Shown here piece after piece: positions 1-35,054 of a stretch of 36,190 bases of DNA. Position 1 is the stretch's first letter, and the number at the start of each line of letters is the position of its first letter. Origin of the DNA: a virus (lineage: Duplodnaviria; Caudoviricetes); the IMG/VR virus record IMGVR_UViG_3300014656_000074, positions 1 to 36,190 of that record; one strand, given 5' to 3'. The notes beneath the pieces were generated by a model. It ran no database searches, had not been told where the DNA came from, and saw nothing but the letters and a program-made list of their open reading frames with translations. The translations under genes and the position numbers were made by a program.

Positions 1-779
1 TTATATACAGTCTTATAGTCTACTGGGTCCCTTATCCCGTATCTGAGTAGGGAAGTGTGGTTATAAGCCTTCCAGGCGGCGAACAGATGCATAAAGCTAT
101 TATAACACCCATCTATACTCTCCTTAGCCTCTATTAAACGGCCTTTAGGGTTAAAAACACCAGTCTTCAAGTCACAATGCACTACCCTTACAGCCTCTAT
201 AGGAGGCATACCAAGCAACTTCTCTGCCATTATAGCATATACACATAGCTGCCAAGAGGCTTTTACTGAATATTCCCAGCTACTCCCTGTCTTATAATCC
301 CATAGCTCTACCCTACCATTACACCTTACTATCTTATCAGCAGTACCAGCTATACCTAGTTCAGGATCTATCATAGACTGCTCTAAGCTTAATACCTCTA
401 GTTCTTGTGCCTCTTCCCAGTTATTCTGTATTCTAAGCATATCAGCAAAACCCTTATTACTGCCTTTCTTACCCTGCTTACGTCCTCTATCATAATCCTC
501 TTTAAACTTATGGTAGTCTGTACCTATCTTACCTGCCCTCTCCATCATGCTTTTAACCTTCATACCTTGACTCATTAAGAACTCTTTATCTCTTTTAGTT
601 ACAATACAACCTAGTATGGTGGTAACAGATACACACGGATGCTCTAAGCCTTGCTCCCAGTACCATCTCCAATCGCTCTTAGTCTCAGTCCACCTCTTAT
701 GGGTATAGCTCTCCTCCTTGCCCATAACAGCTCTATCATGCGCCCACTTGTTATCCTTTAGGTGTATCCAATCACTCAT
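1..779 (-). CDS. PD-(D/E)XK family exonuclease (RecB/Cas4-like fold), 3' end outside window
   Basis: Not in ORF track; translated by hand from ATG 779 (SD AGGGGA): ...SVTTILG...GTDYH...LGIAGTADKIVRCNGRVELWDYKTG...WQLCVYA..., matching G-x-x-D / D-x-K / Q-x-x-x-Y motifs; no stop before base 1. Confidence 0.85.
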   Translation of the reverse strand, partial: MSDWIHLKDNKWAHDRAVMGKEESYTHKRWTETKSDWRWYWEQGLEHPCVSVTTILGCIVTKRDKEFLMSQGMKVKSMMERAGKIGTDYHKFKEDYDRGRKQGKKGSNKGFADMLRIQNNWEEAQELEVLSLEQSMIDPELGIAGTADKIVRCNGRVELWDYKTGSSWEYSVKASWQLCVYAIMAEKLLGMPPIEAVRVVHCDLKTGVFNPKGRLIEAKESIDGCYNSFMHLFAAWKAYNHTSLLRYGIRDPVDYKTVY

Positions 780-807
780 ATTGTATCCCCTTACTTGCCC
801 TATCAGG

Positions 808-869
808 AAGGCCCCTGAGACGAACGGAAATAGGCCTAGGTTCAACGACCACCCCTTGTCTGGGGCCTT
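808..869 (-). promoter_or_regulatory. Intergenic imperfect hairpin upstream of exonuclease gene
   Basis: AAGGCCCC..AGAC / GTCT.GGGGCCTT inverted repeat enclosing a copy of the dispersed motif. Confidence 0.4.
818..850 (-). repeat. Dispersed bipartite motif, degenerate copy 1
   Basis: Minus strand GGTCGTTGAA-cctaGGcctattt-CCGTTCGTCT (spacer 1 nt longer than the other copies). Confidence 0.5.
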
Positions 870-975
870 ACCCCTGCTCTGAAAACCACTCAGCAAGATT
901 TTCCAATAAAGGCCTTACACACACATAAGCCAATATAACACCCAAAATAAAGATGCCAATACATATTACAATCAT
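868..975 (-). CDS. 35-aa single-TM peptide
   Basis: MIVICIGIFILGVILAYVCVRPLLENLAEWFSEQG; TGATG overlap with upstream gene, SD GGGGAG. Confidence 0.5.
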   Translation of the reverse strand: MIVICIGIFILGVILAYVCVRPLLENLAEWFSEQG

Positions 976-1379
976 CACTCCCCCTTTATTCTTCGGCCAA
1001 AACCTTTTAGGCGGTGTTTAACAGCCTCCAATAAATCCTTCTTTGTCACGGGTATGGTCATCACTATGGGTTGAATAAGTCCGACTCTAACGCCGCGTTT
1101 CTCTAATTCTTTGCGCACGGGGTCTGTACACCTCTCACACTCGCACCCGTCCTCGTGCGCTTCTACAGGCACTTGACTAAGTTTTATATCAGGGTTTACT
1201 TGACTAACTTCTATATCATCAGGCAAGCGGTTGAAAATACTAGCCAATAGATCAACGAGACATATCTGCTCATTGACCGCCTCTCGCTCTGGCGAGTCTT
1301 TAGCGGTTTCTTTGCGTGCTTCCCAAAGCATTTTATGCTTTTCACTACACGCTTTTAGTACGTCACTTTTGGCTATCAC
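975..1379 (-). CDS. Hypothetical protein (H/C cluster HEDGCECERC)
   Basis: ORF track; overlaps neighbours in a packed operon; AGGGGA upstream. Confidence 0.7.
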   Translation of the reverse strand: MIAKSDVLKACSEKHKMLWEARKETAKDSPEREAVNEQICLVDLLASIFNRLPDDIEVSQVNPDIKLSQVPVEAHEDGCECERCTDPVRKELEKRGVRVGLIQPIVMTIPVTKKDLLEAVKHRLKGFGRRIKGE

Positions 1380-1578
1380 TTTTCATCCCCCTTAGTTCTT
1401 TGGCTATCATGCCCAAATTAATTGTCCCCTGCGCCCACCCTTTTCTTGCTAACTCCTCGGCTACTTGTGCGGCCTCTTCCAAAATTTCGTCTCTCAACAC
1501 GATAGGACACTTGGCTATCCCACACTCAGGATGCCCCTCTTGTGTATAGGCTACATATTCACATTGCTTGCAGTTCAT
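1363..1578 (-). CDS. Small Cys-containing hypothetical protein
   Basis: MNCKQCEY...C...C; SD AAGGGA. Confidence 0.7.
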   Translation of the reverse strand: MNCKQCEYVAYTQEGHPECGIAKCPIVLRDEILEEAAQVAEELARKGWAQGTINLGMIAKELRGMKSDSQK

Positions 1579-1582
1579 TTCT

Positions 1583-2089
1583 TTATCCCTTCACTGAGTA
1601 CAAGAATATCCATTTGTTCATAGAATCTGGGCCGTGGGTGGCTCTAAGCGTATTATAGAGTTGATCGAAATGCTCAGTTGCTCCAAAATCTTTCATCATA
1701 TCGTAGAAACCTAACGCTACAATTTCTTCCTCCGTCACATCCTTTGCGAGCTTCGCTGTTACGTCGGTGACTTCGAGTATAGCAGCTACTAAATCGGGTT
1801 CTTCTGCCGCAACTATCCGGTCGCCTATGGCGTAAGGTACCGGTACTTCCACCACCTGTTGTTCGCCCCTTTTTAACATATCTTCCCAGCGGTCCTTACG
1901 CTGTGTCACAAATTTTGCTATCGTCGGGCCATATTCACCCTGCTTTACTATCCACGCACTGAATTTGAAGTCTATCGGCGGCTGCGGCTCCATAACCTCC
2001 GCAAACATCCCGAAGCGCCCGCCTTCCATAGCCTTTAGCTGCCACTCATCGAATACTTTTAAGTGTTCTGTTGGCTTATCCTTTGCCAT
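1583..2089 (-). CDS. ASCH/PUA-like domain protein
   Basis: Start moved to ATG 2089 (GGAGG SD). PYAIGDRI..AE / ILEVTDV....KDVTEEEIVALGF / F..LY / N.WIFLY follows the phage ASCH-like pattern. Confidence 0.6.
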   Translation of the reverse strand: MAKDKPTEHLKVFDEWQLKAMEGGRFGMFAEVMEPQPPIDFKFSAWIVKQGEYGPTIAKFVTQRKDRWEDMLKRGEQQVVEVPVPYAIGDRIVAAEEPDLVAAILEVTDVTAKLAKDVTEEEIVALGFYDMMKDFGATEHFDQLYNTLRATHGPDSMNKWIFLYSVKG

Positions 2090-2372
2090 TGTCTGCCTCC
2101 TCGATATGCTCATAGGTCTGCTCAAAAATGTCATCTTCAACTGGATAAATTTCGCCCTTAATGCCTTTTACTATCCACCACCCCCTGCGCGCTAGGTGAT
2201 TGCCTTCTAATGTTTTTATTACCATACAAATATCAGGCGTACCTTGGTTAATAAAAAATACCTCACCCGCATCAATTGCTTTTATAATCCATTCGGGGTC
2301 TTCAGTTTGGTTTCTATCCGCAGTCCATTGAAAAGCCTCAACCACCACTGGTTTTTTTCTATATTTTGTCAT
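2076..2372 (-). CDS. PGDYG-like small phage protein
   Basis: KYRKKPVVVEAFQW...IKTLEG...GWWIVKGIKGEIYP...DIFEQTYE, a widespread phage family signature. Confidence 0.8.
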   Translation of the reverse strand: MTKYRKKPVVVEAFQWTADRNQTEDPEWIIKAIDAGEVFFINQGTPDICMVIKTLEGNHLARRGWWIVKGIKGEIYPVEDDIFEQTYEHIEEADNGKG

Positions 2373-2393
2373 CCTTCACCTCTCCTTCGGGGG

Positions 2394-2522
2394 TTAGCTT
2401 TTTGCATGTTTACCAAACTTTGCTGGCATCTTGATGCGTAGCCCGTCCTTGTACTCAACTTCAATGCTCGCAAATCCAAGAAACAGGCAATAAACACAAA
2501 GCCAAAATAAAAATCTAAACAT
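2394..2522 (-). CDS. 42-aa membrane-anchored peptide
   Basis: MFRFLFWLCVYCLFLGFASIEVEYKDGLRIKMPAKFGKHAKS, GGAGG SD; preferred to track ORF 2369..2620. Confidence 0.55.
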   Translation of the reverse strand: MFRFLFWLCVYCLFLGFASIEVEYKDGLRIKMPAKFGKHAKS

Positions 2523-5174: not shown

Positions 5175-5600
5175 TTAGCTCAATAAGAATCTAACAGCTT
5201 GTCTTGCTTTGTTATAAGCCATCCTTTTGTCTTCTGCAGATAGTGTCGTCAAATAAGCCATAAGTAGTCGTTTCCAGTACTTAGCGCTTTTTAAACCAAC
5301 ACCTAATTTCCTACTCAACATAGTCTGCCCGTATATTGCAATAGCTTCCTCAATCTGCTTGTTTTTCCAATTCGACCGTTGATAAGTATTAAGTGATCTT
5401 ATTATTGGTCGGTTGAGTCTCTTACGGTGTCCTGTCCAGTGGATCATTTCATGTAGAAGTATCACTATAGTCGGAATGGTTCTTGGCGCTATTTCAATAG
5501 TATCCTCGTCAGGCCAGTAACATCCGTCAAAGCCAGACCAACTCGTACGAGTTATATGTGGGTACTTCCCTATCTTTACTAAGACTTGGTTAACGTTCAT
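5175..5600 (-). CDS. Zincin-like metallopeptidase (ArdC C-terminal / MPTase type)
   Basis: LLHEMIHWTGHRKRLNR...EEAIA; start ATG 5600 behind GGGAGGT. Confidence 0.8.
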   Translation of the reverse strand: MNVNQVLVKIGKYPHITRTSWSGFDGCYWPDEDTIEIAPRTIPTIVILLHEMIHWTGHRKRLNRPIIRSLNTYQRSNWKNKQIEEAIAIYGQTMLSRKLGVGLKSAKYWKRLLMAYLTTLSAEDKRMAYNKARQAVRFLLS

Positions 5601-5616
5601 ACATACCTCCCCTTTA

Positions 5617-5817
5617 TTACACATCATCCTCAATACCCTCTTCCACAACCTCAATAGCCTCTTTACACATAAGATACATACACTGAGCCTCACTCAATTC
5701 AGTATCAACAGTACAGTCTTCAATCAAGTCTGGTAGATAGAAGTCCACAGTCACCTCAGGTGTTGGAATACACCCCGCAAGCAATAGACAACACAATGAT
5801 ATTATTATATATTTCAT
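5617..5817 (-). CDS. Small acidic lipoprotein
   Basis: MKYIIISLCCLLLAG-C canonical lipobox LAGC. Confidence 0.75.
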   Translation of the reverse strand: MKYIIISLCCLLLAGCIPTPEVTVDFYLPDLIEDCTVDTELSEAQCMYLMCKEAIEVVEEGIEDDV

Positions 5818-5851
5818 TTGAGAGGCCCTCCACCTGGACCTTACCCCTTGC

Positions 5852-6163
5852 CTATTCATAATTCCCCCTCTTCACAACCTGTTCATCATGTCTAACAACC
5901 TCTTTTCCACAGTCCTCACACACAAGGTATTCATCATCCAATAGATCTCTTATATTAACAAGATCCTCAGTACCACACTCAGCACAGTAAACCCTCCCAC
6001 ACACCTCACAAGCTTCCCAGGGCTTCCAGTCATCGTCCAAAGTCTCCCCACAATCAACACAATGAAACAGGTCGAACTCTGGGGATATCCTGTAATCCTC
6101 TCTTAGCCTCTCAGCCATCTCCCAAACCGCATCCTTATATTTCTCATCCAATGTCTGACTCAT
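5852..6163 (-). CDS. Cys-rich double zinc-finger protein
   Basis: Four CxxC pairs (CVDC, CEVC, CAEC, CEDC). Confidence 0.75.
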   Translation of the reverse strand: MSQTLDEKYKDAVWEMAERLREDYRISPEFDLFHCVDCGETLDDDWKPWEACEVCGRVYCAECGTEDLVNIRDLLDDEYLVCEDCGKEVVRHDEQVVKRGNYE

Positions 6164-7373: not shown

Positions 7374-7553
7374 TTATTTGTAAACAGCGTTACCATCAAT
7401 AACAACCTCGACCACCTTAGACATCTCCTCAGTGGGAAACTGCCCAACATCAAACCACTTGCCCAAAAAGTAAGTAACAATCTCCTCATCCGTACCATTT
7501 ACACTTGTGCTCCACGAAACCCCATTTTCTGTAGTTATTCTCGCTGTTCTCAT
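7374..7553 (-). CDS. 59-aa hypothetical protein
   Basis: Not in track: MRTARITTENGVSWSTSVNGTDEEIVTYFLGKWFDVGQFPTEEMSKVVEVVIDGNAVYK; AGGGGA SD. Confidence 0.7.
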   Translation of the reverse strand: MRTARITTENGVSWSTSVNGTDEEIVTYFLGKWFDVGQFPTEEMSKVVEVVIDGNAVYK

Positions 7554-7571
7554 ATAATCCCCTTTCAGTTA

Positions 7572-7763
7572 TTAAGCATTATAGCCCTGCATCACTCGCA
7601 ATTCTTTTGCACTTATTGACCAGTTATCCCGTCTATTAACTAATGCCATTGTTTTCTGATATATCTCTGGGTGCTTCACTAGGTACGCCCTCGCTTCGTT
7701 TGCTTCAATCATTATAGCATCTCTGAATACTTTCCTCAAGCCCTTTTTACTCATATTCATCAT
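7572..7763 (-). CDS. First gene of the leftward arm, hypothetical
   Basis: Start ATG 7763 behind AGGAGG. Confidence 0.7.
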   Translation of the reverse strand: MMNMSKKGLRKVFRDAIMIEANEARAYLVKHPEIYQKTMALVNRRDNWSISAKELRVMQGYNA

Positions 7764-7801
7764 TTTGTTTTCCTCCTTGCTTGCCATTCACCTATTATAT
7801 A

Positions 7802-7817
7802 AGCAATTAACATGCCA
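7802..7817 (-). promoter_or_regulatory. Sigma54 (-24/-12) promoter
   Basis: TGGCAT-GTTAA-TTGCT vs consensus TGGCAC-N5-TTGCW, correct spacing, 39 nt upstream of the start codon. Confidence 0.7.
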
Positions 7818-7834
7818 ACATGCCAGGCCAATGA

Positions 7835-7847
7835 TATCAGCCACTTA
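7835..7847. promoter_or_regulatory. IHF-type binding site
   Basis: TATCAG-CCAC-TTA matches WATCAR-N4-TTR; lies about -44 to -56 of the sigma54 promoter. Confidence 0.6.
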
Positions 7848-8025
7848 CACCGATTACATGGGTGCTCATACACCTGCACTAATGCTTAACCAACCTATAA
7901 CTATGATTCTAAACCACTATAATTGAAAAGCAAAGTCAACTAACACCCAGTGTCAAAAAACCGATAAGACACTATGACCGCACAATAGTGCTCAATAGAG
8001 CATAATGACACTATTGATATTGATT

Positions 8026-8057
8026 AGGCTTCCATAAATGCCCCAGGTTTAACGATC
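8026..8057 (-). repeat. Dispersed bipartite motif copy 3
   Basis: Minus strand GATCGTTAAA-cctgGGgcattt-ATGGAAGCCT. Confidence 0.8.
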
Positions 8058-8438
8058 ATAGGACTTGGCTACCCTTACCCTTACCAAAACAGAGCGTGGC
8101 AAGGTTGCCAAGCGGCGTTAGTATAATGATAGCGATAGCTTGCATGCTCTGGCCTTACCCCAAGAGGGAGACAAAAGGATACAGATACCCAATACCCTAA
8201 CACCTATAACACTAAGGCTTATGCACTATACATAAGAGTATAAGATAACATGCTACTCCTACATGCTCTGGCTCTGGTCTAACACCCCCGCCCCGCTAGC
8301 TCCTCAGAATCCTAGTCCTATATACCCATTTATACCCTACCCCCTAGGGCCCCCCATTGTGATTCTATATAGAGGAATGACCCCATCTCAAAATATAATA
8401 ATAATAAAATTAGTCCCTAGAGCATACAATACCAATAA

Positions 8439-8451
8439 TATCAGCTACTTA
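8439..8451. promoter_or_regulatory. Second IHF-type site
   Basis: TATCAG-CTAC-TTA, within a 19/21 direct repeat of 7828-7848. Confidence 0.55.
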
Positions 8452-8473
8452 CTATGAGCATCATAAACACCTA

Positions 8474-8502
8474 TTGACGAACACCCTAAACTATGATATA
8501 CT
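8474..8502 (+). promoter_or_regulatory. Sigma70-type promoter for the late operon
   Basis: TTGACG-17 bp-TATACT with extended -10 TG. Confidence 0.75.
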
Positions 8503-8545
8503 AGAAGTATAGAGTCAGTAGAGTCCCAGTACTACCCCCTCCGTA

Positions 8546-9985
8546 ATGACTAAACAACTAAACTCAGCAGAGCAATTCAGGGCATGGTGTTACTTATACC
8601 TTACACACCACTTTAAATCCCTCCTAGGACCACTCCATGACGAGTGGTTTAGTCTTATAGACCACAAAAGAGTATGTATCTCAGCCCCTCGCGGCTTTGC
8701 TAAAAGCCACTTCTGGACTTTGTACTACCCTCTGTTCAAAGCTCTCTCCTGCCCAGGTACCAGCATCATCATCGTATCAGCCTCAGCCACCCTAGCAGAG
8801 AAGTTCCTTATGAAGATCAAAAGGGAACTAGAGCTTAACAGCGATCTTATAGCCCAATACGGTACCCAAGAGACAAAGACATGGCGTAACAACCTCCTAC
8901 ACCTCTCTAATGGCTCTATGCTCGAAGCTATAGGAGCTAATGGCCGTATCCGTGGTAATAGACCCGATATAGTAATAATGGACGATCTAGAGAATGACAT
9001 GAACGTCCGTTCCGAAGACATCCAGCTCCACATGGTTCACTGGTTCAAGGAAGCTGTTATCAATACCCTAACCGTAGACGGTCAAATAATCATCGTAGGC
9101 ACCCCTCTCCACCCAATGTCCTTCCTAAGCCGTATACTGGACAAAGACATCTCAGTCCTCCACAGCTATGATAAATGGGTAATCAAGCACTTTGGAGCCA
9201 GAGGAGAAGATGGTAAGTCAGTATGGCCCCAGCACTACACCACAGCTTGGCTAGACGAAAAAGAAGATGAGATCGGTCCCGCTGCCTTTGCCCAAGAATA
9301 CATGGGTAACCCAGTCCCTGATGAACTAAGACCCTTCAAACCCGAAATGATCCAATGGTACAAAGAACTACCCAAACGCCTTATCTTCACCACTACGGTA
9401 GACCCAGCAGCCACCACAGGTAACGAATCAGACTACACAGCCATAGTAACCGTAGGAACAGACGCCGATGGCACTATGTACGTAGCAGACGCAATAAGAG
9501 GCCGCTGGGAACCAGACGAGATCATTGAAAAGATCTTCCAACAGTACCTAACCTACGGCTCCAGAACCATAGCCATAGAAGAAGTAGCCTTCTCTAACAT
9601 GCTCCGCAAACAACTAGAGAAGGAAATGCTCCGCCGTCACCTCCCCCTAAACGTAGTAGCCCTAAAGAAAGACAACTCTTCAATGGGTATCAAGAAGACC
9701 CTACGCATAGAAGGTCTACAACCCCACATAAAAGCAGGCTGGATGCTCTTCTCCCACGCCCACAAAGACCTAGAAACCGAACTCCTCTGCTTCCCAGGCC
9801 GTCACGACGACCTCCTAGACGCCCTAGCATACCAACTAGACATAATCCAACCAGCCTCCAAAGGTAACACAGAACGAGAATACATAGAAAATGCCCCAGC
9901 AGGCTCCTACCTAGACTGGGATAAGTACTGTAACCCAGAAAAATACCTCCCCAAATGCGGCAAACGCAAAACCTGGCATATCTAA
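8546..9985 (+). CDS. terL: Terminase large subunit
   Basis: Walker A APRGFAKS, Walker B IVIMDDLE, coupling motif GTP, FAQEYMGNP, nuclease VDPA...SDYTA and HDDLLDALAY. Confidence 0.95.
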   Translation: MTKQLNSAEQFRAWCYLYLTHHFKSLLGPLHDEWFSLIDHKRVCISAPRGFAKSHFWTLYYPLFKALSCPGTSIIIVSASATLAEKFLMKIKRELELNSDLIAQYGTQETKTWRNNLLHLSNGSMLEAIGANGRIRGNRPDIVIMDDLENDMNVRSEDIQLHMVHWFKEAVINTLTVDGQIIIVGTPLHPMSFLSRILDKDISVLHSYDKWVIKHFGARGEDGKSVWPQHYTTAWLDEKEDEIGPAAFAQEYMGNPVPDELRPFKPEMIQWYKELPKRLIFTTTVDPAATTGNESDYTAIVTVGTDADGTMYVADAIRGRWEPDEIIEKIFQQYLTYGSRTIAIEEVAFSNMLRKQLEKEMLRRHLPLNVVALKKDNSSMGIKKTLRIEGLQPHIKAGWMLFSHAHKDLETELLCFPGRHDDLLDALAYQLDIIQPASKGNTEREYIENAPAGSYLDWDKYCNPEKYLPKCGKRKTWHI

Positions 9986-13323: not shown

Positions 13324-14289
13324 ATGTATCCAGGTGGATCTACAGTAGCTGTTGATACCTCTGCATCTCGTAATAGTGACATTCTCACAGCTTTTATGTC
13401 AGAAGTCCTTAACGATTTTCCAGTGGACAACAGAACAGTCTTAAACCCCACCCTCGATCACCTCAAGCAAAATGCTCGCATTAAGTCTTGGGGACGTCAG
13501 GCATATTGTCCCATCTATACAGGCACCAACACAACTGGTGGCTACTATAGTGGGTACGATGAGTTTGATGCAACACCTCAGTCAGCAGCCCGTAGCGTTA
13601 ACTACGCTATGGTCAACTGGGGTCAGACCGTTGTGGTCAATGACGAGGAACTAACAGAAACAAAAGGTGATAGACACAAAATCTATGACCTCGTTAAGTT
13701 TAAAAAGCAAGTAGCAGAAGACACTTGCTTCGACGATCTCAACGAAGATTGTTATGCCGCTGCTCCAGCAGCAGATGAACTTAACTCCCTAGCAGTAATG
13801 ATTGATTCTACAGGCTCATGTGGTGACCTCTCAGCCACCACAGACGCTCAGTGGGCATCAGTTGAAAACGCTGGTGGTGTCTTTACAGCCCAAGGTTACG
13901 CAGACATGATTACCATGTACAACGACCTAAAAGCCAACAAGTCCCATCCATCAGCAGTCATGACAACTCAAGCAATCCATGAGTTGTATGAACTCGAACA
14001 CAACGTAGACGTCCGTTATGGTGACCCCAAAATGGCCGGAAAACGTGGTGTCAAGGAACTCTTTTTCAAAGACATTCCTATCCTGTGGGATGACGATTGC
14101 ACCGCCGGTGTAATGTACTTCCTTAACAATAAACATCTGTTCCTAGCTATCGAATCAAGTCAGAACTTCCAGTTCGACCCATTCGCAAAGCCAGTCAAAC
14201 AGAAAGCCCAAATCTCCCTGTTCCACGTTCGTCTCCAGATCATGTGTGACAAACGTAACGCCCAGGGTAAGATCACAGGCATAAGCTAA
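13324..14289 (+). CDS. Major capsid protein
   Basis: 321 aa after scaffold, AGGAGA SD; HK97-like pattern (YSGYDEF, LFFKDIPILWDDDC, MYFLNNKHL, RNAQGKITGI). Confidence 0.85.
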   Translation: MYPGGSTVAVDTSASRNSDILTAFMSEVLNDFPVDNRTVLNPTLDHLKQNARIKSWGRQAYCPIYTGTNTTGGYYSGYDEFDATPQSAARSVNYAMVNWGQTVVVNDEELTETKGDRHKIYDLVKFKKQVAEDTCFDDLNEDCYAAAPAADELNSLAVMIDSTGSCGDLSATTDAQWASVENAGGVFTAQGYADMITMYNDLKANKSHPSAVMTTQAIHELYELEHNVDVRYGDPKMAGKRGVKELFFKDIPILWDDDCTAGVMYFLNNKHLFLAIESSQNFQFDPFAKPVKQKAQISLFHVRLQIMCDKRNAQGKITGIS

Positions 14290-28074: not shown

Positions 28075-30798
28075 ATGGCATCCACACTAGACTTCGTTAA
28101 AAGCGTTCCAGCAGAAACTCCTTCCAAGGCTCTAGACTTCGTTAAGAGTGTTCCTAAAGCTTCTGAAGAAGAGGAACAGTCCCCATTCATGGAGATCTTA
28201 GGAAAGGCTATGAAAGCCTATGATGCATATAAAACAGCAGCAGTAATCCCTAAACTACTGGAGACTCCTACCAAGTATGCTTTAGATGTTCCCGCAGCAG
28301 TAGCAGGAGCACAGATAGCTCATGCAGGTAAGAAGGCAGATCCACTACAAAAGCTATCAGATATAATCTTTCAACGTACTACAGAACCTAAGGATATAGC
28401 AAAAGCACAGAACATACAGTATGAGCCTAAGCAATCAGAAGCTTCTGGTATATTCCAGCGTATGGTAGAGAACATAAAAGAACGAGCTAAGACACTACCA
28501 GCACGACAGGCAGGAGCAGCATTTACTGGAGCAATGACCCTACCACAGATGATACTAAGCGGCATAATCCCTAAGAAATCCCCTAAAGTGGACTCATTCT
28601 TTAAGGAGATGGGACACGAATCTGGACTAAAAGCGCAGATTGCCGAAGGACAAGCTAAGTCTAAAGTTGCTTTTGATGAAATGGAAGAGGGTATTGCTAC
28701 AGCCAATAAGAACCTAAAGACGATGTTCCCCTCTAAGATACTTACTAGAAGACCAGTAAAGAACCCTTTTCAATCCAAGAAGTTTGATCTAAGTGAGAAA
28801 CCTCTGGGTGTTATTAAGGCCCCCAAGAACCCATACGAACTTATCAATAAACGCTGGACTCCTGGTACAGCAGTAAAGAGAACTCGTAACGAAATATCAG
28901 CAGTAGAAAAGCAGATAGCTACAGACCATATAGCCCGTAACAATCAGTTAGCTCTTTTTAATAAAAGCCTTAAATCAATGGGGGTAGATCCAGCCACAGT
29001 TCCTGGGGTATCCGACGAAGCCTTATCTGGTCTTAACGCCACAGAAGCCTTTGCCAAGATTGATGCAGCCCACTCTACCACACTAACTACTATCCCAGCA
29101 GCACTAGAAACAGCGAAGAACGCAGCAGCTAGACAAACAGCTACTCTGTATGGAGTAAGAAACATTATAACTAAACGTCTTAATACAGCAGGTGTGTCAG
29201 GCGTAGACGCTCTTAAAATGCTACGTGGCGAGATACCTCTTACTCCTGAGCTTCAGCCTCTTAAACCCCTAGTAGATAGAATGTCTAATGTTATCCATAC
29301 AATGGCAAAGAACAAAGGACATAAGATAGGTAAACTAGATGATTATATCCCCACCATGCGCCGTCTCAAGGTACATGTAGCTAATCCAGATAAGGTGGTA
29401 GTACCTTCACTGAAACAGCAACAGATGACCCTGGGAGATCTTATCCCAAGTACCGTCAAGCATAGAGCTAAACTAGCTAAACTTCCTAAAGAGGTGTATG
29501 AAGACGATCTCTTAAAGCTTATTGATAGACGTATCTGGGAGACCCATGTAGAAGCTCTATTAACTCCCGAACGAGTAGCACAGATCAACTATAATCGTGC
29601 TATACTAGGCTTAAAGGGTAAGACCAAGGAACTTAACTATCTGATGGATTACGTTAAGAGAACTACAGGCCTTTCCACTAGCTCTACCTACGAAGCTCCT
29701 ATAGAAGCTCTTGTATCCTCAGAGGGTCAACAGACCATGCAGCGTATTAGGGACGTAGTAGATGCTCAACAGCCTGGTATGGGTAAGCAGCTCTTACGTG
29801 ACATGAACAAGGTTATGTTCTCCTCTTGGATAGGAGCTAACCCAACTGCTCACATTAAACAGATACTACAGCCCATGTACGTAGGTTCTCCTGAGATAGG
29901 CATTAAATCAGTACTTAGAGGAATGAAACTTGCTGCTAAAACGCCTAGTAAGTATAAAGCAGTATCTGCCAGGTTTAAGCGTATCTTCTCTAAACCAGGC
30001 AGTATTAGGTTACTAGAGTCTAACGAAGATGTACAGGCCTTAAGCGGGTTTCATAAAGGCATAGATAAGATGACACAGGCTCTAATGAAGGGGTTTACTG
30101 GGTTGGACAGATACAACCGGTCAGCGATATCCCTTGGTGTATATGATGATATACTGCGTAATGGCCCTAAGGCGGTTCATTTAGAGGGATTGTTGCCAGG
30201 ACAAGCTCAGTACGTACAGGAAGGTCTTAAGGGCGGTATCAAAGAGTTTGCCTTTAGAGCAGGGCTTATGCGTACCTTAAGGGTAAACTACATATACTCA
30301 ATATTTGATAAACCACAGCTATTAGCTAATGCGCTTGGTGAGGCTATCCCGTTTACTACATGGTCTCGTAATACTATTAACCGTATGGTAGGCGATGCAA
30401 TGATAGGTAACACTACTCTAATGGCTAAACGGCTGGCATACCCCCTAATGATGAGAGAGGCCATTATCGCAGCTACTGGCTATGACGTACCTAACTCCCT
30501 ACCAATACAAGCCGCTACTGGTGCCTTTGATCTACAGCCTTACCCAGCTGTAACAGGCTTTATAGATAGACCAGACAAAGCACTACAACACGGAGCATCC
30601 CTTATACCAGGAGAACAGCGCATTGTAAAGACCTTAACAAGAGGTCCCGTTGAAGGTCTTACAGGCCTACGACAAGGATGGCACCCAGGACTACTACAAG
30701 TAGGACTACATCTTCTAAACTCTATGGAGGATACCCCTAAACCAGCTAGTACCTTAGACTTTATTAAAAGCATACCTAGACAGGAAGAGATGAAGTAA
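28075..30798 (+). CDS. Large DNA ejection/transfer protein
   Basis: 907 aa, helical, last of tail cluster; IPFTTW-type C-terminal region; terminal LDF.KS.P repeats. Confidence 0.65.
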   Translation: MASTLDFVKSVPAETPSKALDFVKSVPKASEEEEQSPFMEILGKAMKAYDAYKTAAVIPKLLETPTKYALDVPAAVAGAQIAHAGKKADPLQKLSDIIFQRTTEPKDIAKAQNIQYEPKQSEASGIFQRMVENIKERAKTLPARQAGAAFTGAMTLPQMILSGIIPKKSPKVDSFFKEMGHESGLKAQIAEGQAKSKVAFDEMEEGIATANKNLKTMFPSKILTRRPVKNPFQSKKFDLSEKPLGVIKAPKNPYELINKRWTPGTAVKRTRNEISAVEKQIATDHIARNNQLALFNKSLKSMGVDPATVPGVSDEALSGLNATEAFAKIDAAHSTTLTTIPAALETAKNAAARQTATLYGVRNIITKRLNTAGVSGVDALKMLRGEIPLTPELQPLKPLVDRMSNVIHTMAKNKGHKIGKLDDYIPTMRRLKVHVANPDKVVVPSLKQQQMTLGDLIPSTVKHRAKLAKLPKEVYEDDLLKLIDRRIWETHVEALLTPERVAQINYNRAILGLKGKTKELNYLMDYVKRTTGLSTSSTYEAPIEALVSSEGQQTMQRIRDVVDAQQPGMGKQLLRDMNKVMFSSWIGANPTAHIKQILQPMYVGSPEIGIKSVLRGMKLAAKTPSKYKAVSARFKRIFSKPGSIRLLESNEDVQALSGFHKGIDKMTQALMKGFTGLDRYNRSAISLGVYDDILRNGPKAVHLEGLLPGQAQYVQEGLKGGIKEFAFRAGLMRTLRVNYIYSIFDKPQLLANALGEAIPFTTWSRNTINRMVGDAMIGNTTLMAKRLAYPLMMREAIIAATGYDVPNSLPIQAATGAFDLQPYPAVTGFIDRPDKALQHGASLIPGEQRIVKTLTRGPVEGLTGLRQGWHPGLLQVGLHLLNSMEDTPKPASTLDFIKSIPRQEEMK

Positions 30799-30971
30799 TG
30801 ACACATCCCAACATACAACAACGACTAGACCGCATAGAAGATAAGATGGATGACCAGTTTGCTAGGGTCTTCAAGGAGCTATCACACCTAAGAGGTAAGC
30901 TCTACTTTGGTGCAGGATGTATTAGCGTAGCTGTATCAGTACTTATAGCGTATTTAAGGGGATGGTTATGA
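30798..30971 (+). CDS. Holin-like / XhlA-like protein (57 aa)
   Basis: Not in track: MTHPNIQQRLDRIEDKMDDQFARVFKELSHLRGKLYFGAGCISVAVSVLIAYLRGWL; coiled coil + C-terminal TM, coupled to both neighbours. Confidence 0.65.
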   Translation: MTHPNIQQRLDRIEDKMDDQFARVFKELSHLRGKLYFGAGCISVAVSVLIAYLRGWL

Positions 30972-31396
30972 AACTAACCAAGGAAGGTCTAGATCTAATC
31001 AAGAAGTTTGAGGGCCTGTCCCTTGAGGCCTACCGCTGCCCTGCTGGTCTGTGGACAATAGGCTATGGACATACTAAGTTTGTACAACAGGGAGATCAGA
31101 TTACTGAGAAAGAAGCCAACGCCTACCTTATTAAAGATCTACAGTGGGCAGAACATGTAGTAGACTACTCAATAGGTGTTCAGCTATCAGATAACCAGTA
31201 CTCAGCTCTTGTCTCTCTTGTCTTTAATATAGGTAAACAAGCCTTCTTAAGGTCTACCCTACGTAGATACCTTAATCATGGTAACTACCTACGAGCCGCT
31301 AATGAACTACTAAGATGGAATAAGGTAGGTACAAGAGTACTAAAAGGCCTAGAACGTCGTAGGAAGGCTGAGAAGGCCTTATTTGAGAAGGACTAG
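30968..31396 (+). CDS. Endolysin, GH24 lysozyme (no SAR anchor)
   Basis: FEGLSLEAYRCPAGLWTIGYGHT (E-x8-C-x5-T), ALVSLVFNIG, GLERRRKAEKALF. Confidence 0.95.
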   Translation: MKLTKEGLDLIKKFEGLSLEAYRCPAGLWTIGYGHTKFVQQGDQITEKEANAYLIKDLQWAEHVVDYSIGVQLSDNQYSALVSLVFNIGKQAFLRSTLRRYLNHGNYLRAANELLRWNKVGTRVLKGLERRRKAEKALFEKD

Positions 31397-31418
31397 GCCT
31401 TACCCCTTACTAGGGGTA

Positions 31419-31450
31419 GATCGTTCAATGGTGGGCCTATATGGAAGCCT
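31419..31450 (+). repeat. Dispersed bipartite motif copy 5
   Basis: GATCGTTCAA-tggtGGgcctat-ATGGAAGCCT. Confidence 0.85.
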
Positions 31451-31484: not shown

Positions 31485-32141
31485 ATGCCTAAGATAGAAG
31501 ACCTTATAAAAGCAATGGCTGGGGGTAATGATAACTATGGTATATTCCCTGATGATAATACTACTGATATGATGCCTATGTTAGATATGCTTATGGCTAT
31601 ATCAGGTACAGGTATGCCATTAGATCCTTCTACAGGAGCCATGCCTATTATAGACAATATGGGTAGAGCAAAGAAACCACAGGCTTGGATGGGTATTGGT
31701 CAAGGAGGAACCTCTGAAATAGGTACTAAAGCCAAAGTAGCCCCAGCTGACATATATGATTACCTTGTTAACACCAAAGGACTGTCCCATAATAAAGCAA
31801 TGGGTATACTACCAAACATACAAGCTGAGTCTGGGTTTAATCCTGGTATAAAAGAGAAGGGTGTTAGTAAGGGTGGGGTAGGACTATTCCAGCATACAGG
31901 ACCAAGAAGAGAAGGGCTATACAATGCCCATGGAGTACGTGATGCCTCCCAGATACCGTGGCAGAAGCAGGTAGACTATGCTCTATCAGAGCCTGAAGGA
32001 CAACAGTATCTAAACAGGACATATCAGAGCCCCGCTGAAGCAACTGGTAGGTTTCTAAACGTCTTTGAGAAGCCTAAGATACGTAACATAAATGAACGAC
32101 TTAAGTACCTTAGAGGCTTAGAGAAGGTGGTGCAAAGATGA
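31485..32141 (+). CDS. Phage tail-type lysozyme (Phage_lysozyme2-like) with low-complexity N-terminus
   Basis: AMGILPNIQAESGFNP, GVGLFQHTGPRR, QVDYALSE, FLNVFEKP. Confidence 0.85.
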   Translation: MPKIEDLIKAMAGGNDNYGIFPDDNTTDMMPMLDMLMAISGTGMPLDPSTGAMPIIDNMGRAKKPQAWMGIGQGGTSEIGTKAKVAPADIYDYLVNTKGLSHNKAMGILPNIQAESGFNPGIKEKGVSKGGVGLFQHTGPRREGLYNAHGVRDASQIPWQKQVDYALSEPEGQQYLNRTYQSPAEATGRFLNVFEKPKIRNINERLKYLRGLEKVVQR

Positions 32142-32323
32142 TATTAGTACTAGCAGAGCCTGTTAGATCAGGAACAGAATGGATACCAGTAGCTACAGCA
32201 GCTATACTAGGCATAGCAGGTCTTATAGCAGCTTTAAACTATTTGATAAGGCAGAGCAGTCTTTTAGCCAATACAGTGTGGGAGCTTACGGAGTATGGGT
32301 TTAAGAGGGGTGAGCAGGAATGA
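32138..32323 (+). CDS. 61-aa single-TM protein (holin/antiholin-like; candidate rhomboid substrate)
   Basis: TM segment VATAAILGIAGLIAALNYLI; ATGA overlaps on both sides. Confidence 0.65.
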   Translation: MILVLAEPVRSGTEWIPVATAAILGIAGLIAALNYLIRQSSLLANTVWELTEYGFKRGEQE

Positions 32324-32595
32324 TAACAGCAGCTATTGTAGGTGGGTTTCTAAAGAAGGCCTTGTGGAATAAGTATGCCCTGGTAGCAGGTCTTATGCTT
32401 GTATCCTTCATAGCTGGTAGTACATGGATGTGGAAGAGAATGGTACTTAAAGAGTCTCAGGCTGTTACCAGAGAGCTTGTAGAACATATAAGAGAGAAAG
32501 ACAAAGTAAAGGAGCATTATGAGAATCGTTTCGATGATGAGTGCATTCTTAGTGGAAGGGTGTCAATGCATAGTAAGGGCTGTAAGAAAGACTGA
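32320..32595 (+). CDS. Inner-membrane spanin (Rz)-like protein
   Basis: N-terminal TM then charged helical domain with C-terminal Cys residues; in lysis region. Confidence 0.5.
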   Translation: MITAAIVGGFLKKALWNKYALVAGLMLVSFIAGSTWMWKRMVLKESQAVTRELVEHIREKDKVKEHYENRFDDECILSGRVSMHSKGCKKD

Positions 32596-33184
32596 AGCTT
32601 TCTTAAATAAACCTAGATCAGCTCCATTAGGCTTAGGTACAGGCATTCTATTGTCTGTATGTGTATTCCTCTACTTCTATACAACCCCAATGTTTGGTCC
32701 AACCACCCTCAAAGGTGCAGAAGCCTTGGTAGTATATGAGATGTCCCCTTCTGTATGGTTGGTACTCTCTTCCTTCCTACACGGCAACTGTGCTCACCTT
32801 GTTGGTAACTTTGCAATCCTTGCTCCTTGTCTTCTCCTAATAGAGCGTAAGCTAGGCTGTATGCATGTCATCCTATTCTGGTTGATCTTAGCCTTAGTGC
32901 AGGGTGTTCTCTGTCTTCACTTTGGACAGGGCGGTATTGGCTCCTCTGCTGTTGCTTTTGGTACCCTTGCTCTAGCAGTTGGTTTATATACAAAGGGGAT
33001 TTATAGATTGATATTAGTACCGGGATTGGTATTCTTTATGTCAGAGATTGCTGTATGGTGGATACCTGATGGTATTGGTCATTTAGCTCATGGCTTGGGT
33101 TATGCTGTAGGCCTTATGTGGCTCCTCTGCCTCTCTCCTGAGATTAAAGACAAGGTGCCTTGCAAGAAGTGCTGTAATCATTAG
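32519..33184 (+). CDS. Rhomboid-family intramembrane serine protease
   Basis: Six hydrophobic segments; FLHGNCAHLVGN (HxxxxHxxxN), IERKLG, GSS143A, AH191GLGYAVG. Confidence 0.88.
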   Translation: MRIVSMMSAFLVEGCQCIVRAVRKTEAFLNKPRSAPLGLGTGILLSVCVFLYFYTTPMFGPTTLKGAEALVVYEMSPSVWLVLSSFLHGNCAHLVGNFAILAPCLLLIERKLGCMHVILFWLILALVQGVLCLHFGQGGIGSSAVAFGTLALAVGLYTKGIYRLILVPGLVFFMSEIAVWWIPDGIGHLAHGLGYAVGLMWLLCLSPEIKDKVPCKKCCNH

Positions 33185-33210
33185 TCCAATATTAGACCAT
33201 AATTAGACCA
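33180..33210. repeat. Three 9-bp direct repeats with 11-bp period
   Basis: ATTAGTCCA (33180), ATTAGACCA (33191), ATTAGACCA (33202). Confidence 0.7.
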
Positions 33211-33239
33211 AAGCCCCAACCGAAAGGAAGGGGCTTTTT
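33210..33239 (+). terminator. Intrinsic terminator at the convergence of the two arms (possibly bidirectional)
   Basis: AAAGCCCC-AACCGAAAGGAA-GGGGCTTTTT. Confidence 0.8.
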
Positions 33240-33264
33240 GTTTGGTCTCATCGGGCGGGGTACG

Positions 33265-33487: not shown

Positions 33488-33661
33488 TTATAAGTGACTT
33501 ATGTCTAAAGCAGCCTCAAACTCGTACATAAACTCATGGGCAGCAATTAACTGACACTTCAGCTCTTTTGCTTCTGCCATCTTATTAATCAACTCATACT
33601 CTTCATCAGTTAGCTCACTATAACGTATTACTCTAGATAACTCTTCTTTGTTTAGTCTCAT
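33488..33661 (-). CDS. 57-aa hypothetical protein
   Basis: Not in track: MRLNKEELSRVIRYSELTDEEYELINKMAEAKELKCQLIAAHEFMYEFEAALDISHL; GGAGG SD, ATGA overlap. Confidence 0.65.
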   Translation of the reverse strand: MRLNKEELSRVIRYSELTDEEYELINKMAEAKELKCQLIAAHEFMYEFEAALDISHL

Positions 33662-33921
33662 TTATCCTCCCAACACGGTGATATGCTTAGAGAGTCTCCC
33701 CACTCTTGGAGCTTAAGCATATTGTTTATGGCCCTTGTTAACATAGTATCACATACACAACCATTTGTGTCTATCTTAACATCTTCCATAACAGGATAGG
33801 AAGGTCTAGGTATCTTTAACAGATGGGGACGAGCACACCCAGGAGCAGTACAAATTAGAAACACCCCTAGTAATACCCATAATATAGTATAACAAGTAAA
33901 GAACCTTTTGTCATATTTCAT
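33658..33921 (-). CDS. Putative lipoprotein, outer-membrane spanin (Rz1)-like
   Basis: Start ATG 33921 (AGGAGG); hydrophobic signal then APG-C (imperfect lipobox), Pro-rich IPRPSYP, Cys pair, C-terminal helix. Confidence 0.55.
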   Translation of the reverse strand: MKYDKRFFTCYTILWVLLGVFLICTAPGCARPHLLKIPRPSYPVMEDVKIDTNGCVCDTMLTRAINNMLKLQEWGDSLSISPCWEDK

Positions 33922-33931
33922 TCTTCCTCCT

Positions 33932-34633
33932 TTAATCAAGATTAGTAGTATTGAACATAGCTATGCCGCCAACAGGAAATATGGCATCTCCATACCACCT
34001 AGATACCACACCTAATACTACCCCTCTATTGTCTACAACAGGGCTTCCAGACATTCCAGGCAATATGATGCCAGACACCCATGTCATTCTAAAGTTTAGA
34101 TCATCTGGTGTGATTCTCCATAACCTACTGTAATGAATGGCATCGCCCTTTAAGTCAATGGTTGTTCCTTTGACAGTGATGATCGCTTCATCAAAGTATG
34201 GCTGCACCGCCCACAACTCTCTATCCTGTAAGGTTCCATCATTAGGATACTTTATCCACCTTATGTCTCCTATCCTTAGATCAGTCGTATGTCTATTAGC
34301 TGTTCCAGGCAACCTGCATATATCAGTACCATTGGAATCACCATCGCTAACGTGCACTATAGAACTAGTATGTCTAGCGTTTCTATACATATAAGTTACA
34401 TACTTCTTGCCAGACACTTCCTGCACTCCAGCACTACAACAATGCAAAGCAGTCCAAACATGAGATACCCCTTTCCTGTCCTCAGCTATAAAACCACTAC
34501 AATAGGGTTCACTGTCTTTATCCACCAACAACACTGTTGATTTCATTACACTCTTAACCTTCCCTGGAACACCAGCTTCAGCTGTCCATGGAAAAAGACA
34601 TATGACCATTATTATGGACAATAGATACTTCAT
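33932..34633 (-). CDS. Secreted trypsin-like (S1) serine protease, no PDZ
   Basis: Start ATG 34633 (AGGAGGT); signal peptide ending AEA; CSGF, TALHC, DICRL, PGMSGSPV. Confidence 0.88.
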   Translation of the reverse strand: MKYLLSIIMVICLFPWTAEAGVPGKVKSVMKSTVLLVDKDSEPYCSGFIAEDRKGVSHVWTALHCCSAGVQEVSGKKYVTYMYRNARHTSSIVHVSDGDSNGTDICRLPGTANRHTTDLRIGDIRWIKYPNDGTLQDRELWAVQPYFDEAIITVKGTTIDLKGDAIHYSRLWRITPDDLNFRMTWVSGIILPGMSGSPVVDNRGVVLGVVSRWYGDAIFPVGGIAMFNTTNLD

Positions 34634-34718
34634 TCGACCTCCTTCAGGAATAGGCCTGAGAGTCCCATACTTGCCCTGTGTTGAACGTTCGTAGTCTTTC
34701 CTAGGGGTAACCCTACCA

Positions 34719-35054
34719 TTAACATATCTTACCCCCATGTCTTTTACTACGGGTCTTATTATAGGTCATCTTAACAGCCAAAGCATCGGCTAATGGTATA
34801 TTAAAAGCAGCACACACATCAAATACCCTTATTAATATGTCTGCCATCTCTACAGCCAAACCTTCAGGCTTCTTAGTAATACCATCATAGGCTATGCTTG
34901 TGCCTTTATCTCCTACCCTAAAGGCTTCTAAGGCTTCAGATACTTCAGAATGGATAAGAGCAAGACATTCAGGAATACCCCTGCTCTCTTCCCACCAGCC
35001 TTTATCAACTGCTGTAGCATGAGCCTTTTGACACATCCTGTCAAGAGTCTTCAT
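34719..35054 (-). CDS. MazG-like nucleotide pyrophosphohydrolase
   Basis: LALIHSEVSEALEAFR...EMADILIRVFD...KMTYNKTR..RHGGK. Confidence 0.85.
   Translation of the reverse strand: MKTLDRMCQKAHATAVDKGWWEESRGIPECLALIHSEVSEALEAFRVGDKGTSIAYDGITKKPEGLAVEMADILIRVFDVCAAFNIPLADALAVKMTYNKTRSKRHGGKIC

Follow-up and report, generated by a model that had tools for sequence, protein, structure and literature searches.

The window analysed here is the whole of a virus record of 36,190 bases, without terminal repeats. The last gene of its late operon has the features of a rhomboid intramembrane serine protease, which raises the question of what such a protease would do at the end of a set of phage lysis genes. 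In the general view, the moment of lysis depends on how holin accumulates and how antiholin binds it; if the reading favoured below is true, a phage protease dedicated to this task and working within the membrane would add a new level of control to lysis. The sequence-only reading of this locus described rhomboids as cellular proteases; phage rhomboids as such are already annotated, in phages DLP3 and DLP5, in two huge phages (INPHARED), in BFVD entries and in phrog_16931. What is unusual is that phage rhomboids turn up repeatedly within lysis cassettes, most clearly in a second clade. No report on phage rhomboid function or on rhomboids in lysis cassettes was found in the literature covered (full texts, few of them subscription papers); genes of this kind may be listed in the annotation tables that accompany papers on metagenomic phages.

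The rhomboid gene and its cassette

The late operon is podovirus-like and occupies the plus strand from about 8.5 kb to 33.2 kb, with genes for a terminase, an SU10-type portal and adaptor, a major head protein and a GNAT protein (Pfam, PHROGs). The phage is far from cultured phages: its terminase matches are less than 30% identical, its capsid protein has one match (25%), and no close relatives were found with the capsid protein in an IMG/VR scan. The loose ends of a 27.9-kb contig from run X3 match the window and, if colinear, the contig would extend about 9.8 kb beyond the window end; thus the record is probably incomplete or permuted. The read runs are labelled groundwater metagenome, and the presence of a lysozyme and of lipoprotein-like genes suggests that the host is a bacterium. 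On the minus strand, convergent with the rhomboid, lies a gene for a trypsin-like protease (33658-34738) with a signal-peptide-like hydrophobic segment and a likely start near residue 36, a second exported protease of the same phage, followed by a small lipoprotein-like gene. The early minus strand encodes a zincin-like metallopeptidase (MPTase-PolyVal; 5175-5693) with an anti-restriction PHROG match and, far from the lysis genes, a small lipoprotein-like protein (5617-5859) with a weak match to an Rz-like spanin PHROG (E 3e-4).

The product of the last late gene matches Pfam Rhomboid (PF01694) at E 8.2e-9 and 36.2 bits, above the gathering cut-off of 22.6. Its motifs are in place as originally read (H88-x4-H93-x3-N97, E109xxxG113, G141-S142-S143, H191-x2-G194-x3-G198), and the L1 WR motif is absent as had been said, V79-W80 standing where W-R is usual. 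WR is likewise absent from the subfamily and from most other rhomboids compared; it is common, not required for family membership. In an AlphaFold model of pLDDT 75, residues 39-55, 91-112, 114-134, 143-157, 161-181 and 186-211 form six long helices and residues 2-29 an N-terminal one. VIA-align superposed the model on GlpG with Z 17.4 and an rmsd of 3.4 over 166 residues, the next unrelated fold reaching Z 5.6. The top 30 Foldseek PDB matches, among those listed, were all GlpG, none at E<=0.001 (best E 0.004). A single-sequence phmmer search of the PDB gave no rhomboid match for the window protein, and the subfamily profile matched H. influenzae GlpG at E 1.3e-7 with the GxS and AH motifs aligned. 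The protein shares with GlpG of E. coli and H. influenzae (PF01694, MEROPS S54) the six-TM fold, GxS on TM4, His on TM6, HxxxxHxxxN and ExxxG; it differs in being only about 19% identical, in having GSSA instead of GxSG and no WR, in its amphipathic N-terminal helix, and in being phage-borne. Lysine and arginine number 13 on the N-terminus, TM2-3 and TM4-5 loops and C-terminus against one on the other loops, as expected of an N-in/C-in rhomboid with an outward active site; by analogy with GlpG, the active site would lie near the outer face of the inner membrane. The rhomboid is therefore real, with six helices, an intact-looking Ser-His dyad and, apparently, activity.

More specialized families gave no such assignment. 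The window protein has no match at E<=0.1 to the NCBIfam GlpG equivalogs NF008155 and TIGR04239, and none in PHROGs, where its relatives match phrog_16931. Neither does it match rhombosortase (TIGR03902; its relatives score 16-24 bits, cut-off 84), although the rhombosortase/GlyGly-CTERM system offers a likeness in having a rhomboid dedicated to neighbouring membrane-anchored proteins. The tail of the protein is Cys-rich (C215, C218, C219 and H221; 33161-33181), and P0002 has two Cys there; it is a possible site of metal binding or lipid modification.

The start codon is either M1, which has a Shine-Dalgarno-like sequence, or M6; databases call M6 or M58. From M1 the gene overlaps the preceding 91-aa gene by 77 bp. 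In each of the six relatives that were checked, the N-terminal segment likewise forms an amphipathic helix. The possibility that it is a fused o-spanin signal peptide was considered and rejected on that ground and because it aligns with P0002, which has His at the position of Cys15.

The rhomboid gene closes a cassette of two muramidases and three small membrane proteins (Table 1), in which successive gaps are -1, -10, 88, -4, -4 and -77 bp, followed by a terminator-like hairpin. Its description as the last gene of a late/lysis operon before a terminator is thus borne out, although a simple terminator scanner did not pick up the hairpin, which is possibly bidirectional; late expression of the rhomboid would follow from this position. 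The overlap with a spanin-like gene holds as to the overlap, from M1, but the label is not supported: the 91-aa protein has no spanin or other family match in Pfam, PHROGs or NCBIfam and no homologue was found, and no lipoprotein ORF is present in its other frames, the lipoprotein-like genes being on the minus strand. By anatomy only, it may be holin- or i-spanin-like; its look-alikes in the Atlas, at 0.90-0.91, are three clusters without names, of which two are mostly viral. None of the 57-, 61- and 91-aa TM proteins matches a holin family (Pfam, PHROGs, NCBIfam). In anatomy the 57-aa gene is like the genes of 71-97 aa found just ahead of the rhomboid in L016 and L018-L025, with weak similarity (E 0.01-0.09 in an 11-protein set). 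By position, the 907-aa protein is likely an ejection or internal virion protein, and the second muramidase, from its matches, is possibly virion-borne rather than lytic. The sole real gap, after the lysozyme, contains a hairpin (31390-31445; one fold, no shuffle control) that, lying upstream of the last four genes, might serve to attenuate the transcript or to stabilise it.

Table 1. Features of the cassette in the window and gene orders around second-clade rhomboids
Sequence	Feature or gene order	Positions	Strand	Remarks
Window	907-aa protein heading the cassette, no family	28075..30798	+	Same slot as 829-1143-aa genes in L016, L018-L025
Window	57-aa coiled-coil protein with C-terminal TM, holin-like	30798..30971	+	TM 35-53
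Window	Endolysin (soluble phage lysozyme) without TM or SAR segment	30962..31396	+	PF00959 E 6e-46, phrog_7
Window	Phage_lysozyme2 muramidase, low-complexity N-terminus	31485..32141	+	PF18013 E 7e-18; PHROG tail/tape-measure matches
Window	61-aa single-TM protein	32138..32323	+	Candidate substrate; TatA-like site V18-A-T-A|A-I23 at 32189-32206
Window	91-aa single-TM protein	32320..32595	+	TM 20-38; charged helical C-terminal part, two Cys
Window	Shine-Dalgarno-like AAGGAG	32509..32514	+	4 nt before rhomboid M1; inside 91-aa gene
Window	Rhomboid intramembrane serine protease	32519..33184	+	221 aa (216 if start is M6); Pfam, AF2, Foldseek, VIA, charge distribution, hydrophobic moment
Window	Codon of catalytic Ser143 (G141-S142-S143)	32945..32947	+	Invariant in 8/8 subfamily alignment rows; aligns to GlpG GxS
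Window	Codon of catalytic His191 (TM6)	33089..33091	+	Invariant in 8/8 subfamily alignment rows
Window	Terminator-like hairpin with U-run	33205..33248	+	z -3.49; 0/200 shuffles as good; between rhomboid and convergent genes
L021	Holin (Phage_holin_4_1), rhomboid, lysozyme	1112-2467		Overlaps of 1 and 41 bp (L021, L022)
L022	Holin (Phage_holin_4_1), rhomboid, lysozyme	7552-8892		As L021
L026	Rhomboid, holin (Phage_holin_4_1), lysozyme	147-1533		
L027	Rhomboid, holin (Phage_holin_4_1), 146-aa TM gene, lysozyme	7872-9727		
L016	Amidase, coiled-coil + TM gene, rhomboid			
L019, L020, L023, L024, L025, L094	190-362-aa gene, 46-54-aa TM gene, 73-aa coiled-coil + TM gene, rhomboid			

The subfamily and other phage rhomboids

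A search of 1.84 billion representatives returned 49 matches, and an alignment search added two relatives. Five subfamily relatives stand at E 1e-43 to 1e-13, followed by a gap, with general rhomboids from 1e-6, and in quick trees the subfamily forms one long-branched clade (SH-aLRT 98-100). No members were found in IMG/VR by single-protein and alignment queries, or in INPHARED at E<=0.01, where P0003 has a single weak match, to a huge-phage rhomboid that falls in a different clade. A subfamily pattern covering six of the seven distinct subfamily sequences gave two matches in 185,579 species genomes, both by chance. The canonical pattern IGASGA[IV]FG gave five matches, two huge-phage rhomboids and three by chance. 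The window protein is a true rhomboid in a new, divergent and apparently phage-associated subfamily.

Read-derived variants of the closest relative, L002, which is present only in small shares in runs X3 and X4, have 20 of 21 changed codons silent (8 of 8 in the first variant, for which 8 of 14 differences were listed, and 12 of 13 in the second) versus 25% expected at random. A read-derived variant of the window sequence has seven base differences in ten codons around H191, all silent by eye. Purifying selection on the rhomboid appears supported by these sequences. It is very improbable, and largely refuted, that the gene was recently captured from a host and is neutral or decaying: rhomboids are present in all 14 control genomes, and the codon adaptation of this gene (0.63) is the lowest of the 17 late genes (others 0.69-0.83), but its GC content is the same as that of the genome (0.44), its variants are almost all silent, and it belongs to a long-branched clade with no member found by pattern in the species genomes.

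Genomic context is known for three subfamily relatives. The L002 rhomboid is the last gene before a hairpin (z -4.95) and convergent genes, the upstream part being missing from the contig. In L003 and L004, short contigs that look viral, the rhomboid is followed by a 72-aa gene common to both (51% identical) and by fibre-like genes, and a 399-aa gene in this context has a C-terminal stretch in common with the 725-aa protein of the window. Thus one of three relatives is at an operon end, two are in fibre-like surroundings, and lysis genes near a subfamily rhomboid were seen only in the window itself; given the contexts of L003 and L004, the lysis link is not fixed in the subfamily. The L003 protein (1178-2077) has an N-terminal extension of about 115 residues, made of amphipathic and hydrophobic helices, and its gene lies before fibre-like and repeat-protein genes.

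Such surroundings would suit a protease of morphogenesis, which would release a virion or assembly protein from its membrane tether, and the rhomboid of L028, the nearest outside row to the subfamily in one tree, also lies among structural (fibre-like, adaptor) genes, about 10 kb from a GH108 endolysin; no close relatives of L028 were found. This role is improbable for the window protein, as its gene is outside the structural block and hydrophobic segments are absent from the major capsid protein, the portal, the scaffold and the rest of the large late proteins; among the late genes before the cassette, only a 174-aa gene has one, internal and marginal. Capsid-leader processing was likewise rejected, the major capsid protein (13324-14289) having no hydrophobic segment.

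A second pattern found 56 loci, 30 of them with a clear rhomboid (4 re-finds, 21 jumbo-type and 5 others). The jumbo-type loci make up 21 of the 26 new ones and have the rhomboid beside a topoisomerase or an L030-type gene; lysis queries had no match in the 26 new loci among the matches listed. In jumbo-type phages (L005-L008, L029-L031, L034-L087), canonical rhomboids occupy two fixed neighbourhoods: type II topoisomerase subunit, rhomboid and phosphatase-like gene; or sigma-factor-like gene, rhomboid, small exported protein and 530-550-aa gene (labels by sequence inspection). Stenotrophomonas phages DLP3 (gp93) and DLP5 (gp96), whose rhomboids appear in PMC7326821 and PMC5834331 as annotations or as morons, resemble the window in being tailed phages with a rhomboid; theirs, however, are of an unrelated lineage (14.8 bits to the subfamily profile), sit among sugar-modification morons and are about 35 kb from the lysozyme. 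The rhomboids of jumbo phages and of DLP3/DLP5 are not lysis-linked.

Accessory genes are commonly located at the end of a late operon, which counts against a role in lysis. The window rhomboid could accordingly be a moron protease acting on a host receptor, a defence effector or an envelope-anchoring protein, its operon-end position meaning late expression only. The many contexts of phage rhomboids (topoisomerase or non-structural neighbours at 21 of 26 new loci in jumbo phages, cell-surface modification morons in DLP3/DLP5), the lowest codon adaptation among the late genes, the presence of a signal-peptide trypsin-like protease in the same phage, and the cutting of host membrane proteins by bacterial rhomboids described in part of PMC7232013 all favour this alternative. 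We nevertheless consider it rather unlikely, as it leaves unexplained why rhomboids of the second clade stay next to holin or holin-like genes whatever the gene order and the types of holin and hydrolase, and in L021 and L022 even lie between holin and lysozyme with overlapping frames.

A second clade beside holin genes

Six weaker matches with an IGSSG/IGASG motif were followed into IMG/VR, where a scan gave 16 loci from 50 candidates. The second clade comprises 13 contigs, 11 placed by tree (SH-aLRT 97-99) and the cut-off L024 and L094 placed via near-identical neighbours. In 12 of the 13 the rhomboid is directly beside a holin or holin-like gene, and in 10 (9 over the Pfam cut-off) a wall hydrolase of one of three families lies within three genes, in varied orders. 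The rhomboid touches a Pfam Phage_holin_4_1 gene in four contigs (L021, L022, L026, L027), and the lysis linkage of these is cleaner than that of the window itself. It directly follows a small gene for a coiled coil and a TM segment in eight, and is the last of its strand run in seven of these, L024 being cut off. The synteny with lysis genes that had been named as a check on homologues is therefore seen for phage rhomboids in general, through the repeated holin and endolysin neighbours of this clade, but is not fixed in the window's own subfamily, in which L003 and L004 lie among fibre-like genes.

In the L019 group (Table 1, last row) the 190-362-aa gene is an amidase or glucosaminidase in L019, L020, L023, L024 and L025 and has no family in L094; the nearby hydrolase of this group may be a virion enzyme. 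Between closely related phages, the amidase or glucosaminidase domain is swapped in one slot (L019, 6580-7557; L020, 6676-7560; L023, 6955-7527; L024, 6499-7587; L025, 6703-7584), and the three membrane genes downstream are nearly unchanged. Where relatives of the 51-aa TM gene occur, the rhomboid is also present wherever the contig reaches far enough (six of seven; L093 is cut off). L018, the complete genome G003, has its rhomboid with small TM genes and its endolysin candidate, an M15 peptidase, about 17 kb away; since the rhomboid stays with the TM genes while the endolysin candidate is distant, the link is to membrane genes. L017 has neither a holin-like neighbour nor a nearby hydrolase. 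A hydrolase is nearby in five of seven arrangements, for which a rough binomial test gives p 4e-4 at an assumed rate of 12% and 0.013 at an assumed 25%, the arrangements sharing ancestry.

The plan of the window is that of L016 and L018-L025: a large ejection-type gene, one or more hydrolases, small TM genes and the rhomboid last. The tree test is compatible with a common lineage of the window subfamily and the clade linked to lysis but does not establish it (p-AU 0.43; 11 rows were dropped from that tree, for speed and because of long branches).

The rhomboid might also act without cutting, as a membrane scaffold or adaptor for a holin or wall hydrolase, in the manner of the rhomboid-fold ActH with the amidase LytH. 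ActH, a rhomboid-domain protein, binds an amidase and some bacterial rhomboids are chaperone-like, according to portions of PMC9245657, and WR is missing from the window protein. The same source has ActH act via extracellular TPRs, however, which the window protein does not have, and the subfamily has an invariant Ser and His, which the second-clade members checked also retain, so that a purely structural role is quite improbable.

Candidate substrate and possible role in lysis

Related phage proteases beside holin genes, together with an intact-looking rhomboid at the cassette end, make the clipping of a small phage membrane protein likely; the -4, -4 and -77 bp gaps from the second muramidase to the rhomboid, followed by a terminator, support a role in lysis. 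Our preferred reading, held tentatively at somewhat below an even chance, is that the rhomboid cuts a co-expressed, N-out, holin-type phage protein and so tunes lysis timing. The late-expressed protease would cut the outward-facing end of the small membrane protein, for which the 61-aa protein is the lead candidate from its sequence. Its 21-residue head would be clipped at V-A-T-A|A-I, and the clipped protein licensed to assemble into lesions, as AarA licenses TatA; alternatively, should the 61-aa protein be an antiholin, clipping would eliminate it. The lesion would then let the soluble lysozyme through, just as happens when lysis is by an ordinary holin and endolysin. That the tethered protein whose release was proposed earlier is an endolysin was rejected, since both muramidases lack TM and SAR segments; SAR and membrane-tethered endolysins have an N-terminal TM.

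Providencia AarA removes a short N-terminal extension from the N-out, single-TM pro-TatA, allowing assembly, and rhomboids require a site close to the upper end of an N-out TM helix, with P1 small, P4 both large and hydrophobic, and P2' hydrophobic (from parts of PMC3712462 and PMC2941825 for AarA, and of the latter for the site rules). In the 61-aa protein V-A-T-A|A-I stands atop the TM helix, followed by two glycines, in parallel with I5-A-T-A8|A9-F10 of Providencia TatA, with which it shares the ATAA core and hydrophobic P4 and P2'; the predicted head, however, is 21 residues long, not the 8 of TatA. Homology to TatA was rejected, as there is no TatA Pfam match. A single copy of the strict TatA-like hexamer, a motif chosen after the sequence had been seen, is present in 262,634 six-frame residues; shuffling of the TM yields it in 0.3% of cases, versus 42% for the general rhomboid motif, which was present in 64 of 169 single-TM proteins in Strisovsky 2009. 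With one TM and a weakly amphipathic tail, the 61-aa protein has the outline of TatA and of the single-TM BhlA/TpeE holins, which resemble TatA in topology (PMC9527704, section 7). It is plausibly N-out, by a weak charge bias, and has a weak PVV-CTERM match (16 bits, below the cut-off of 27). No shared cleavage-type site equivalent to that of the 61-aa protein was found in the second-clade holins.

Holin-endolysin cassettes of the T4 T/RI type, with antiholin, likewise combine a soluble muramidase with small membrane proteins at the late-operon end and a timing set in the membrane. The holin-endolysin-antiholin systems described in the literature found have no phage-encoded intramembrane protease, unlike the window, whose holin and spanin are putative. 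A broader proposal, which we advance with slightly more reserve, is that a rhomboid is a fourth lysis component in widespread podovirus-like phages, triggering or timing lysis through the cutting of a pro-holin or antiholin within the membrane (here a TatA-like 61-aa pro-holin), and that it was recruited, perhaps repeatedly, to the side of at least two holin types and three hydrolase types. Bacterial rhomboids have few natural substrates and roles called enigmatic in a passage of PMC7232013. With protease and candidate substrates adjacent in a three-gene cassette, the control of lysis and the natural substrates of rhomboids are both open to test in E. coli, and the holin-rhomboid-lysozyme order of L021 and L022 is the cleanest test case. 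The 91-aa protein of the window begins M-I-T-A-A-I, a stretch that is probably on the cytoplasmic side.
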